Source: Eledone cirrhosa
Taxonomy: Eukaryota
Length of the DNA stretch: 64,000 nt
Direction: 5' to 3'
Assembly: GCA_964016885.1 (NCBI GenBank)
Contig: OZ024741.1
Coordinates: 325,686,001 to 325,750,000, forward strand
The translations under genes were made by a program, and so were the position numbers. Shown here piece after piece: positions 1 to 64,000 of this stretch. The notes below the pieces were generated by a model, which did not search any database, was not told the DNA's origin, and saw nothing but the letters and a program-made list of their open reading frames with translations. Position 1 is the stretch's first letter; each line of letters starts with the position of its first letter.

Positions 1-2050
1 GGATAACCTGGTGGGAGATGCGCAGACATGTGCTATCCCGTCCAGGTCCATCCACGACAACCTCCACCTCATGCGATACATCATAGAGAGGGTTGGGAAC
101 GAACCCGGCTTTGGTGGGGCCCTGATCAACTTGGATCAATCTAAGGCATTCGATAGGGTCGACCATGATAGGGTCGACCCGTTTTCAGGGGCTGGATCAA
201 TGCCATGCACAGCAGCCGCATCTGCTCTAGGGTCAAGGTGAACGGCTACCTCTCGGAGCCGTTCGAAATCGCGCGGTCCATCCGACAGGGGTTCCCTCTC
301 TCCCCCCTTCTGTATGTAATGACTCTAGAGCCACTGCTGCGGAAGTTGGAGTTGTTGCAGGGCATCCCGTTTGAACCGGGATTGCGGAAAGCGGTGTCAG
401 CCTACGCCGATGACATAACAGTAATGGTGTCGACGGCCTCGGAAATCGGGGCGTTCGGCACCTTACTGGAGGAGTACGAAAGGTTTACAGGGGCTAAGCT
501 GAACCGGGACAAGTCGATCGGTCTGCAACTCGGCACGTGGAGGGGCAGAACGATGCCCTCCGATGACGTCGTCGGGCGCTGGACGGAGGGCCCGGTGAAG
601 TTGCTCGGGGTCTGGTTCGGACCAGACCTCCAGGTGGAGAAGAACTGGGGTGAAGTAACGAAGAGGGTGTTTGCACTGACCCAGAAGTGGGCCGAGTGCA
701 AACTGTCCCTGAAAGGTCGGGCGGAGGTGGCGAACACTTATATAGCGTCCGTCATCTACTACCGCCTGACCGTTGTGCCTTGCCCGAGGGAAACGCTCGC
801 CAAAATGGAGCGCGCACTCTTCCAATTCCTTTGGAAGAAGCGGGCTCCTATGGTGAGGAGATCCATCTGCTGTCAACACCCTTCGAAAGGAGGGCTGGGG
901 ATGCCGTGGCTAATGATACGTAAACACGCATTAAGGCTACAGCACCTTCAGGTATTCCTCTCCGGTCAACCGGTGTGGGCCCCGTTTGTGAGGCGAGCCT
1001 TTCCCAGACTCGTCTCACTCACCGAGCTGCAATCCTGGGTCAAGCAAAGACCGAGAAAACTGGGCGCCTGGCACACCGAGTGTGCCCAGGCGCTCACGGC
1101 TCTCTGGCAAGCGGACTCGGCTGTCAGTGGAGAATCGCCCTCGTCATTCTATAGAGGGCTGGTGGTTAGCAGGTGCGACGACGCCCTCGGAGAAGCCCTA
1201 GGCATGGAGGAAGACGAACTGGCCAACCTGTTCGGTAGGACATTCAGCCCGGGACCCATGGATAACTTCCAGAGGTCCCTGGCCTGGCAATGCTACAGAA
1301 GGGCTCTGCCCATTCGCGAAAGGCTCTACAGACATGGGCGCCCGGGTAGGGACCCCTCGAAAAAGATCTGTCCCAGACGCGTGTGCGACGAGGAAACCGT
1401 TGCACACGCATTGGTACACTGCTCGGGCATTGCCGATCTGTGGGGCTATGTCGAACAGCTGCTGTCAAGGGTGGGACCGATCTGGTTGACCACCGAGTCT
1501 ATTGTAACGATCAAGCCGCCTCCCTTCTTCAAAAACGAAGAAGAGGCGGTGTTTCTGTGCGTAATAGCCATGGCGGAAGAGGTTGTATGGTGGACGCGTC
1601 TGAAAGGACTGAGGTCAGACACCTTTCTCTCTGGCCAACAACTGGTCCGTTTCTTCCGATATCATTTCGGAAGAAGGATCAGGATGGAGAGAGAGGTGCT
1701 GCACCCCAGCCGTTTTTATGAAAGATGGGTGAAAGTGGCGAGAATGGCTCGTGTGAATGGGCCTTCACTCTACATCAGACTATAGGTGAGGAAGATGAAA
1801 GACCAAGGGAGCACCCCTTCTCTGTGCTCCTGAGGAAAAGGGTTGCACACTTCTTTCGGGGGTGTTTGCGACCCCCCCAAGGCGCCTCCTCTCTATTGAG
1901 GATTTTGTTATATATTTTATTCTGTTATATTTTATTTTATTTTTATATTTTGTTATTGCCTCCTCCTTATTGAGGATGCCTTGTTTTGTAAACTCCCCCC
2001 TTTGTACTTGTCCCACTTTTGATGCCCTGGTGGCAAATAAAAGAAACATT
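1..2050 (+). mobile_element. E1: Tx1/L1-like non-LTR retrotransposon, 3' part (subfamily B), cut by window start
   Basis: RT motifs LDQSKAFDRVDH, IRQGFPLS, AYADD; ORF2 stop 1785; 3'UTR; AATAAA 2036-2041, then (TATC)n. Local duplication/deletion near 165-180 breaks the frame. Confidence 0.95.
205..1785 (+). pseudogene. E1 ORF2 C-terminal part (RT and C-terminal Zn motif, here CPRRVC)
   Basis: Near-identical to the C-terminal half of ORF2 at 10753-14022; frameshifted upstream. Confidence 0.9.
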
Positions 2051-2139
2051 TCTATCTATCTATCTATCTATCTATCTATCTATCTATCTATCTATCTATC
2101 TATCTATCTATCTATCTATCTATCTATCTATCTATCTAT
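2051..2139 (+). repeat. (TATC)n tract between E1 and E2
   Basis: About 22 perfect TATC units. Confidence 0.98.
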
Positions 2140-2372
2140 TAATCTAGCTGTCGTCTGTTCTACAGCGTAGATGTAATTCACTTCGCGCAGAAGTTTTGTT
2201 CAAATTTATTGCGGAAATTTTGTAAGTTCAATTTTAATTTTGATACTATTGTGTAGCTTGAACCCCGTCTGAACTGTCAGGCGGTGGGTCAGCTCATCTT
2301 TACCCCTCCTAGGGGTGAAAAACCTGTTTTTAAAAATTTTGTGGCAAAAAAAATTTCAATCGTCTGACAGAA

Positions 2373-60595: not shown

Positions 60596-63500
60596 AACGT
60601 GTGGAATATCGCCGGTAAGTTTTTTGTTAATTTCTATGCAAAAAACCGATCTAATTGTTTGAAAAAAAGACAACACTTTGTAGATTAACCCCCAAGCTGA
60701 ATTGTCAGCCGGGTGGTAATCCCATTTTTCGCAAATGTAGGGGCGAAAATTTTATTTAAAAGTTTGTTTTAAAATATCAAATTTTACAAAGTAAAAAAAA
60801 CTTGAGCAACACTAGAACGCTGGAGAACGTTAATAGAGAAAAGAGAGAGAAAGAGGCAGATATTAGCGTTATATCTGCTTCTACTGCTATGGACGTTGCC
60901 ATAGATACTGTCACAAAAGAAAAAAATATATCAACATTTGAAAATGTTACAATTTCTACCGCCGAAGCGGAGAAAAATGACAATAACACACGGGAAAACA
61001 CGGCAAAAAAACCCATTGACATACATACACATGAAAAAGACATCAACAACTCTACAGATACATCTACACATAAAATTTCCAACAACGATAACATCATTAT
61101 TAACAACAACATCATACAAAAAAAGAAAATGTCTTTTGCTGACACAGTCAACAAGAAACAAGATTTTATAAATCTTGATATCTCCAACGCAAGGGATATG
61201 CTCCAGCAAGGGAGAAAATTTGTAACTTTCGAAGAAAGAGGTGGATTTAGAATTAACTCACCCCTTGAAATAAAGGAAGACACAAACCGCCGATCAGTCA
61301 CTTTTAGGACTGTGTCAAATTCGTCAAGAAAACCGACATTTGTTAATCAGTCAGATATAGAAGATTCTTTCAAGGAGATTCTAGGAAATGTCGATTTTCT
61401 CCAGCGAGGAAAACAGTACGGAAGTGTTTCCGTACTGTTTAAAAGCGAGGCACTGGCCCCAAAAAACTCTGTGACACCAATAGTGTCAAAAGCATACACC
61501 TTTTTCCCTACATACATGGGGAAAAGGACACAAAAAATAAAAATAAAAAACATACCTCCAAGCATTAACATCTGGTGGATCTTGGCTGGCTTCGTAGAAC
61601 CAGAAACAGATATAATACTTTCGATACGAAAATCCATTCGACAAAGGTGGGCGGGCACCGATTTGGAGATTCTGTTGCAAATGAAACCGGAGAGAATCTC
61701 CAAAATACCCGAAAGAGTCGTTATTGATAATAACAACAAAATAAACATTTCGGTAGAAGGAAGAAAATTTCACTGCTTTCGCTGTGGTAGCACATCTCAC
61801 CTAAAAGCCTCTTGTCCACAAACACACAACAGCAACATCATAAAAAAAACGCTATTACCAACACCAAAACAACCACCACCACCACCACAAGTACAACGAC
61901 AGACGAAACGAGCAACCACACCAAAACAAACAGACACTTAACCAACAACAACAGAAAAAACAGAGACAACACCCCTGAAGAACACATCCCCACTCCATCC
62001 CACTCCATCAAACACTACCACAAACACACATACCGAAACACCACCACCACCACACAACATACCCTTACCCCACACACCTGACGATGATTATTCATCGACG
62101 GATGAAGCTGCTTCTCCTTCTTTAAGTGAAGAGGGAGAACCGCGGAAATCCAAAAAACAAAAAAAGAGACACCACAAAACCCCCAGAACTCCAATCACCA
62201 ACACCAACACACAACCACAGACACAAACAACAACACAAACAACACCACAGTCAAACATCCCCCTATCAGCAAAACCAGCACCAACACCACCCCAAACACA
62301 AGCACCCACCATAAAAAGAAAACTCCCGGATGAACAACAAACTAAAACAATACAACAAAAACACAAACAACAATACGCATACATCAACACAAACAACAAG
62401 AGTTTGATGGAGGTCATCTCCCAAAACCCCAAGGTGGAGACGGAGGGCAAAACTTTCGTCAAGGCAGAATCGTCTCCACACCTTAAACTTATAAGGGTTT
62501 CTATGGAAACCTATAAAGACCTGAAAATTAAATTTTCACAGGACGTGGGCAACCCCTGCCACAAACCCATCAACCGCGTCCTGTTGAAAGGTTTCCCCAC
62601 CCCACCCAACACCCCATCCAGCACCCAAATGGAGATTGAACAACCCGATCTCCAGGAAACGAAAAGGTAAGTGCACCTTTCGTCCCTTTTCGCCAACTTT
62701 TCTTCACCAACATGGCTGGTTTACGAGTTGGAACCGTGAATGTGCGTGGCCTAGGGATGCCCTGGAAACAGGGCCAACTTTTAAACGACCTTAGGTCACA
62801 CAGTATGGATGTGATAGCCATCACCGAGTCCAGAATCCACAACAGGCAGCAACTAACCCCCATCTTCGACGACTTTGAGATCTACGCATCTCTCTGTCAG
62901 CCAGGAGGTGGAGGTGGAGTGGCTGTCATGTTTCGGAAGAACCTGGACGTCGGAGTACAGCAAGTACACTTGGGCCCGGAGGGTAGACTGGTAGTCCTAG
63001 ACGTGAACAGTATCGGAGGTGGAGCCTTCAGACTGGTGGCCGTTTATGCCCCGACCGGGCAATCGCAATCACGGCCAGACTTCTTTAAGCGTCTAGAGTC
63101 TTTTCTGGGAACGTCTCGCTCCTTACTTTTAGTGGGGGACTGGAATGGTATCCTAGATGCACGATGGGACTATGTGGGAGCATGTCCCAGTAGAGCGGGG
63201 TGCAACAGCGTCAAAACTTTAACTGGCCGATAGGTATCGATTGGATTTCCCGACTGCACCACAGTGGACGTGGGTAAACCGCAGTGGGACATCTAGATCG
63301 TATTTAGATAGGTTCTTCATTAGAGAAAGGGACAAGGATATGTTAAGCTGTCCACGAATGCACATGGTTGCCTATTCAGATCACAAGTTAGTCGTCTGCT
63401 TAGTCAACCGTGATAGAATACATAGACAGGGTCCCGGATACTGGAAGCTGAACGTGTCGTTGCCGGCACGTAAAGCTTACAGTGAACGGATAAGTAAACT

Positions 63501-64000
63501 AGTCAAGCAACAGTTAACGGGAGCCATCGTCAACAATAGATGGTGGTACTCTCTCAAGAAAGCAATTAGAATAGAATCGATAGGGTATAGCAGAGAGTTA
63601 GCCTTAGAGAAAAACAGAATAGAAAGAGAACTAGTAGCCAAGGTAGAGGAGGCACTTAGAAGTGGCAACGCGGCTAGAGTGTTAGCGTCGAGAACGGCAC
63701 TGGACCATTTCTTCGATGCGAAACACGAAGGCTGCGTGGTCAGAAGCAAAACACGTGCTCTAGGAATCGAAGGAGCGAAAGCTGTCAGCTGGGCCCGAGT
63801 GGCGGAGGCAAAAAGTGGCAACAAGTCCACGATTCGGTCTTTGAAAGACCAAAACGGACGCGTGCTACTTGACCCCAAGCAAATGTGCGCGGCCTTTCAG
63901 CGGCACTTTGCGCGACTGTTTGAGCAGAACAACGGTGAGGCGAACGGGGCAATGGACTTTAGTTCATACCTCGACGGCCTGCCGCGTCTCTCGAACACGG
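60596..64000 (+). mobile_element. E14: full-length-type copy (ORF1 like E4), cut by window end
   Basis: 5'UTR; ORF1 ~60802-62670 frameshifted near 61940 (CFRCGSTSHLKASC; ends MEIEQPDLQETKR*); ORF2 from ATG 62712, frameshifted near 63220. Confidence 0.93.

Follow-up and report, generated by a model that had tools for sequence, protein, structure and literature searches.

Where copies of a retrotransposon stand head to tail with the same short repeat between them, the repeat may be the site into which the elements insert or a tail that they leave behind. This question is raised by a stretch of 64,000 nucleotides in the 3.0-Gb genome of Eledone cirrhosa (contig OZ024741.1, here C2, positions 325686001-325750000; the whole stretch is called the window), in which a reading made from the letters alone, referred to below as the sequence-only reading, had described 15 plus-strand copies of an L1/Tx1-type long interspersed element (LINE) in two arrays joined by (TATC)n tracts.

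Two arrays of co-oriented copies joined by TATC tracts

We searched the window by tblastn with ORF2 and ORF1 (ORF, open reading frame) of the copy at 54738-60580 (E13). Matches fell exclusively on the plus strand and bore out the census, with 15 co-oriented copies of L1/Tx1 type, nine in array 1 (1-28798) and six in array 2 (42538-64000). The junctions were also as described: 11 of the 13 internal ones are clear (TATC)n tracts, the one between E13 and E14 (60581-60595) is degenerate and E2 joins E2b without a tract. No (GATA)3 tract was found on the plus strand of the window. Both arrays reach beyond it: array 1 opens in a 30-unit TATC tract 12.2 kb upstream and contains 11 copies in total, and array 2 closes with a TATC tract 3.7 kb past the window (+67.7 kb). 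The first copy of array 2, E9, has (TA)22 ahead of it and not TATC. Pairwise identities of 70-100% separate the 15 copies into at least seven lineages, so that the several diverged subfamilies first recognised are real but more numerous than the minimum of four given for them. As had also been noticed, the 5'-truncated copies E5, E6, E11 and E12 each start at another point of the element and abut the tract directly. All complete 3' ends read GTGGC..AATAAA(A)GAAA, then two lineage-specific letters and TATC units, with AATAAA 6-7 nt ahead of the downstream tract and no poly(A). Outside the arrays, 167 kb of DNA from the window and its surroundings contain only two TATC/GATA tracts of at least three units, against 176 AT and 78 AC tracts, and a chance origin of the array tracts is therefore excluded.

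TATC is a target as well as a tail

Dispersed copies were sampled through their 3' untranslated region (UTR), which places no selection on the 5' flank; this sample covers subfamily A and older lineages, subfamily B not being represented. For young A copies on contig C1, 39 of 40 matches were counted; the omitted one (C1:63928722, locus L045) has a full-length, TATC-flanked 5' junction. At least two TATC units lay within 20 nt upstream of 32 of the 39 copies and GATA upstream of none. Truncated copies made up 33 of the 39 and full-length copies the other six. Where a 5'-truncated A copy was preceded by unique DNA, TATC stood at the 5' junction in 16 of 22 cases, against a background of 416 in 332,680 windows (0.125%). 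The sequence-only reading had named TATC restricted to the 3' ends of dispersed copies as the pattern that would speak for a tail; these 16 junctions show another pattern, and the targeting claim survives. In two older lineages TATC was present within 30 nt upstream of four of six and eight of 15 copies (background 0.2%). Target duplications of 10-11 bp could be read at imperfect sites (L001, L010, L017, L037). A family copy adjoins 17 of the first 22 tracts of at least ten units on C1; it lies only downstream in eight, only upstream in two and on both sides in seven.

Genome-wide, a pattern count gave 34,915 3'-end motifs (reversed control, 58), followed by NNTATCT in 14,856 cases, by GATA in four and by poly(A) in five. 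The patterns omit B-type, TAGAAA-type and other variant 3' ends, so that these counts are lower bounds. From the flank, duplication, tract and polarity counts it follows that the TATC tract is the target and that insertion has a strict polarity; TATC is a target as well as a tail, and not a tail alone.

Several observations weigh against this conclusion. The strict 5' test was failed by six of the 22 truncated copies with unique upstream DNA: one lies at a degenerate site with a duplication, one has TATC a few bases further away, one adjoins a CA tract and three show nothing. It was also failed by seven of 15 E4-type junctions, several of them degenerate. The duplication length is unmeasurable inside perfect tracts, five of the 22 long tracts have no recognisable adjacent copy, and 5,877 of the 34,915 3' ends fall outside all classes counted. 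In addition, some array junctions are not independent insertions, because identical tandem copies exist (see below). The proposal of a GATA-specific lineage accordingly needs qualifying: insertion is directed to TATC/GATA in one orientation and recurs in leftover tracts, and the specificity is a strong preference, not an absolute one, since the six copies lack two clean upstream units.

Other arrangements were seen among the sampled copies. At L162 (C1:5362007-5362431) a TATC tract is followed by an inverted piece of the family 3' end and then by very short copies, which resembles 5' inversion. At L225:7550 (C1:10448549) the 3'-end motif leads into sequence that is not repetitive, and the preceding 7.5 kb contain no match to ORF2; this locus may represent a fourth target class or a short non-autonomous element. 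Large internal deletions joining distant parts of the element occur in many copies (L109, L114, L126, L127, L133, L141, L145, L157; window 21232-21269).

Target sequence carried by the element and a model for insertion

In three E4-type copies at non-TATC sites (L141, L144, L154) the 3' flank opens with GATATCTAT; one to two TATC units therefore travel with the element. At the other end, TCTCTATC closes the tract before 26 of 30 full-length A copies, compared with eight of 236 other tracts, the latter drawn from overlapping, non-independent loci; at L098 little beyond this variant stands upstream. These ends suggest a transcript that begins within the upstream tract and runs on for a few units of the downstream one. 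Contigs from four sequencing runs, aligned to E13, cover the element and show neither RNA ends nor empty sites; the argument does not draw on them. Target and tail had been set against each other as alternatives: the tract is indeed the target, but the element carries short target-like sequence at both ends too.

We think it likely that this L1/Tx1-type element enters TATC/GATA repeats in a fixed orientation by target-primed reverse transcription, with a nick on the GATA strand and pairing of TATC units of the RNA. The endonuclease would nick the GATA strand, the freed GATA end would pair with TATC units at the RNA 3' end and prime reverse transcription, and a second nick would follow about 10 bp away; in full-length copies the 5' carried units may help second-end joining. 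Each insertion would split the tract and leave tract on either side, so that later copies of any TATC lineage could stack head to tail, and the arrays would subsequently be remodelled via duplication, internal deletion and recombination. Of this model, the flanks, their polarity, the duplications and the carried letters are observed, and we infer the nicking preference, the RNA ends and the pairing from work on L1, R1Bm and SART1; pairing between the RNA or its flank and the target has been proposed for R1Bm and SART1 (PMC7265360) and for L1 (PMC1950540). Target choice probably needs a loose endonuclease preference together with RNA-DNA pairing.

Proteins and class membership

E13 has both ORFs open, with SYH in the endonuclease where a 99.9% identical copy elsewhere has SDH. 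Pfam identified Exo_endo_phos, RVT_1 and zf-RVT in ORF2. Among three ORF1s scanned, only that of E3 gave a zf-CCHC match, below cut-off (E=0.0026); atlas look-alikes of ORF1 at 0.90-0.92 carry zf-CCHC, and one of them has ZCCHC3-type RNA-binding domains. In the Tx1 clade, ORF1 combines RNA-binding domains with a CCHC knuckle. The endonuclease was modelled from a copy 99.9% identical to E13 (L044; pLDDT 91). Its best match was the human L1 endonuclease, and the top 12 Foldseek matches were all L1 endonucleases at a TM score of about 0.8; neither the R1Bm nor the TRAS1 endonuclease was among the matches listed.

The features of the L1 group are present: an APE endonuclease, a reverse transcriptase and a C-terminal zinc motif, with 5' truncation, target-site duplications and no long terminal repeats. 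The family does not share the poly(A) that L1 in the narrow, mammalian-like sense has at the 3' junction: A6 follows five of 34,915 ends. A Tx1-type target preference, taken as one type making up over 20% of the flanks, is seen in 32 of 39 5' flanks and, for older lineages, in 29 of 29 and 27 of 28 3' flanks. The repeat is not the (TC)n or (TTC)n of Kibi and Koshi, TC tracts following two to three of the first 100 listed ends. Named ORF2 relatives are at most 27% identical. The nearest full-length relatives (P0005-P0035), some in clusters of hundreds, are about 37-44% identical and formed the outgroup in our trees; a metagenome scan for the flanks of a 40%-identity relative found none from which to read its target. 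The family is a non-LTR retrotransposon of L1/Tx1 type and probably a member of the Tx1 clade.

Related lineages with other targets

A census of the common 3' motif gave three main target classes. Besides TATC, a class of 13,829 ends (genome pattern count) lies in (ATT)n; its full-length copies and several truncated ones have ATT at either end. It is the sister clade of the TATC clade, at about 60-79% identity depending on the region. ATT copies (for example L063-L064 at window +92 to +104 kb on the minus strand, L207-L213 and L257-L286) often sit at an ATT tract terminating another, oppositely oriented repeat, or beside short interspersed elements (SINEs).

The third class, of 344 ends, was sampled at 30 loci on 12 contigs. 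All 30 occupy the same fixed position of a 72-bp satellite, one of them in a shorter variant unit; the listed places on the largest contigs lie near contig ends. All 20 loci fetched whole were full-length with a single fixed 5' junction, 18 of them with an open 1152-codon ORF2 frame, and no target duplication was visible at the junctions. The satellite copies (L214-L221, L227-L256, L287-L306; e.g. C1:4228986-4259409) form stacked arrays with at least one satellite unit between neighbours.

ORF2 of the satellite lineage is 86% identical to that of E13, and the lineage was nested within the TATC clade in separate trees of endonuclease, reverse transcriptase and C-terminal regions (quick and FastTree trees, with decayed copies entered as tblastn pieces). 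Placing it outside a group of TATC and two TC-flanked or TATC rows was rejected by the approximately unbiased test (p=0.006; 13 rows, quick tree), the group having been defined after an earlier tree had been inspected. By exact anchored counts, the 23 nt upstream of the element were invariant at 28 of 28 satellite junctions, compared with 13 of 28 when counted one unit further away (p=5e-6), and the 20 nt downstream showed the variation of other units (27 of 37, compared with 28 of 35). Such one-sided conservation fits a 3' primer supplied by the target and a 5' flank supplied by the donor, as target priming predicts. Homing-like gene conversion was also considered for this lineage; the one-sided flanks fit target priming better, and gene conversion is the less likely reading. 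The satellite lineage would represent a recent target switch within one radiation.

What selects the target

It is quite conceivable, although we lean slightly against it, that target recognition is the work of the endonuclease alone and that the flank letters carried along are passive by-products of read-through. The target specificity of Tx1 elements is usually ascribed to the endonuclease (PMC4494074), yet the L1 endonuclease makes few base contacts (PMC8565326). The loop after YxP has FW in six of six satellite copies and G in eight TATC and four ATT copies, and in alignment it corresponds to the L1 endonuclease loop bearing Asn118, which contacts the DNA major groove (PMC8565326); the same loop, however, varies freely among TATC lineages (SGTP, FGTE, FGAE). 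Likewise the hairpin of the ATT clade has RIG instead of RSG or close variants, but the hairpin NRSGTSRS is unchanged between satellite and subfamily A copies.

The opposite proposal, more doubtful and put forward tentatively, is that the address is carried by the RNA and not by the endonuclease, a few flank bases at both transcript ends selecting and joining the target. Since flank bases would be copied into the transcript, one off-target landing could found a lineage of new specificity. If true, the satellite lineage would be a recent event of this kind, nested as it is, with the same hairpin, single-nucleotide precision and full-length insertion in all copies checked.

How the arrays form

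Repeated insertion predicts neighbours of different lineages with different 5' junctions. Neighbours in the window are mostly 70-91% alike and mostly of different lineages, and no two share a 5' junction; 24 of the 39 young A copies have a family neighbour, and arrays at other loci show other subfamily orders. The sequence-only reading had favoured repeated insertion over tandem duplication, which holds for the 15 copies of the window but not for arrays generally. In three pairs of neighbours outside the window, both copies start at the same truncation point and differ at no letter (L007/L008, 601 nt; L015/L016, 615 nt; L025/L026, 531 nt), the TATC tracts separating their members differing in length; tandem duplication or assembly error is a possible origin. 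A 19-kb block 342 kb upstream (C2:325345500-325364200, L203-L204) is a 99% copy of E1-E5 that has a 1.3-kb internal deletion and microhomology deletions and stops where E5 does, in a TATC tract. No unique flank common to this block and the window was found, and the reading as an uncollapsed haplotype was rejected on that ground; the block is possibly a DNA duplication or a read-through retrocopy of about 19 kb. E7, E14 and L034 are mosaic copies. Duplication, besides insertion, shapes the arrays.

We nevertheless judge it improbable that the arrays arose mainly by tandem or segmental duplication of DNA, or are assembly artefacts. The identical pairs, the upstream block with its deletions and the mosaics are what such an origin would leave, but it does not account for window neighbours without a common 5' junction, for a duplicated block that shares no unique flank with the window, or for the differing subfamily orders elsewhere. 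The least probable account, and as the sole cause of the tracts already contradicted, is microsatellite seeding, in which copies landing at random sites would add a (TATC)n tail and 5' tracts would be tails of the preceding copies. Off-target sites do show that at least one to two TATC units belong to the element itself, CR1-L3 elements are described as seeding ATAG/AATAG repeats in snakes (PMC8303610), and the family may well lengthen tracts, because 17 of 22 long tracts adjoin a copy, but the 16 TATC-bearing 5' junctions belong to truncated copies without an upstream family copy, long tracts lie only 5' of a copy more often than only 3', and in several copies (L001, L010, L017) the 3' tract has just 0-2 units, equal to the target duplication.

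Features of the window

The copies, junction tracts and E13 reading frames are collected in the table. Array 1 and array 2 are separated by a microsatellite-rich spacer containing several SINE-like repeats of about 170-200 bp in both orientations (31620-39580), which we take to resemble an octopus SINE, as well as a 74-bp minisatellite of 2.9 copies (39794-40007) and an ACCAC-rich 103-bp repeat (29246-29534).

Table. Element copies, tracts and reading frames in the window (identities are to the copy named).
Feature	Position	Strand	Remarks
E1, 3' part, B-type 3' half	1..2046	+	copy starts ~3.66 kb upstream of window
(TATC)21 junction tract	2051..2139	+	
E2, full 5' end; last ~110 nt of 3' UTR and tract missing	2147..7888	+	complete 3' UTR of E2 type at window+66.4 kb
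E2b, 5'-truncated subfamily A, tractless join to E2	7889..8417	+	98.5% to E13
(TATC)20 junction tract	8420..8502	+	
E3, full-length subfamily B	8503..14284	+	1115-codon open ORF2 segment
(TATC)30 junction tract	14287..14407	+	
E4, full-length, decayed, older lineage	14409..20094	+	
(TATC)5 junction tract	20097..20117	+	
E5, 5'-truncated subfamily B	20118..20684	+	99% to E11
(TATC)13 junction tract	20687..20739	+	
E6, 5'-truncated subfamily A	20740..21165	+	100% to E13
(TATC)16 junction tract	21168..21231	+	
E7, 30-nt 5' head and mosaic 3' fragment	21232..22895	+	81-89%, then 94-100%, to A
(TATC)n junction tract	22896..22981	+	ends in TCTCTATC
E8, full-length subfamily A, ORF2 interrupted	22982..28798	+	97.9% to E13
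Degenerate TATC tract	28801..28840	+	closes array 1
(TA)22 tract	42494..42537	.	5' edge of array 2
E9, old 5'-truncated copy	42538..44294	+	70-77% to all others
(TATC)7 junction tract	44295..44324	+	
E10, full-length, frameshifted	44325..50224	+	
(TATC)9 junction tract	50225..50262	+	
E11, 5'-truncated subfamily B	50263..52969	+	98% to E3
(TATC)19 junction tract	52972..53047	+	
E12, 5'-truncated subfamily A	53048..54699	+	99.3% to E13
(TATC)6 tract	54702..54737	+	ends in the variant with a TC interruption that full-length A copies typically have
E13, full-length subfamily A reference copy	54738..60580	+	ends in AATAAAGAAA, no poly(A)
ORF1 of E13, 638 amino acids	54956..56872	+	one CCHC knuckle
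ORF2 of E13, 1145 amino acids	56906..60343	+	APE endonuclease, reverse transcriptase, zf-RVT
Degenerate TATC junction E13/E14	60581..60595	+	
E14, full 5' end, continues past window	60596..64000	+	joined at window+65.2 kb to 3' part of E2-type copy

Relation to known elements and significance

Tx1-clade families on (TC)n, (TTC)n, (TTCC)n/(TTTC)n and satellites have been described (PMC4494074). Kibi on (TC)n and Koshi on (TTC)n of teleosts, and the crocodilian Tx1 elements on (TTCC)n/(TTTC)n, are microsatellite-preferring APE-type elements of Tx1 kind, as here; the repeat in E. cirrhosa is TATC/GATA, and the 20% flank criterion of the same source (PMC4494074) is far exceeded. In its targeting the family works like Kibi and Koshi.

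Waldo is an APE-type element of the R1 clade that also targets tandem repeats. SART1, TRAS1 and R1Bm of that clade resemble the present family in APE-type targeting of tandem repeats and in a proposed pairing of the RNA 3' end with the target (PMC7265360). SART1 joins via a poly(A) tail (PMC7265360), in contrast to the rarity of poly(A) junctions here, and the endonuclease model places the present enzyme closest to that of L1. CR1-L3, of a different clade, is found beside expanded ATAG-type tracts in snakes, as our family is beside TATC, but is described there as seeding them (PMC8303610), whereas here tracts flank truncated copies on both sides.

The satellite lineage can be compared with the satellite-targeting Tx1 families that appear as 'Sat' only in the Fig. 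3 legend of PMC4494074, and with the L1-CS LINEs that prefer certain monomer positions in the CUS-TR24 satellite of Cuscuta europaea (PMC8091179). Unlike L1-CS, which has duplications of 13-16 bp (PMC8091179), it shows no visible duplication and is full-length throughout the loci fetched whole; it also differs from satellite-targeting LINEs in being nested in a microsatellite-targeting clade. Thirteen recently active L1-Tx1 families with 421 insertions are reported from Octopus vulgaris (PMC13282606). No TATC/GATA-specific LINE was found in the literature searched, a search that did not extend to Repbase/Dfam entries, and a prior database entry is quite possible. The feature is real; microsatellite- and satellite-targeting Tx1 families were already known, and the TATC member is likely new.

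The TATC family and its ATT sister together account for at least 28,000 insertion ends. The ties between the family and most of the long GATA tracts sampled bear on how such microsatellites originate in this animal and on marker work that uses them. Full-length insertion at one exact site is relevant to builders of targeted insertion tools, and if the address lies in the RNA, the satellite lineage would be a natural RNA-addressed LINE that inserts at full length. Three targets, TATC, ATT and one site of a 72-bp satellite, occur within ORF2 proteins that are about 65-90% identical, and at least two target classes include young copies with open ORFs. The family therefore offers a natural test case for the shares of the endonuclease and of RNA-DNA pairing in LINE target choice.

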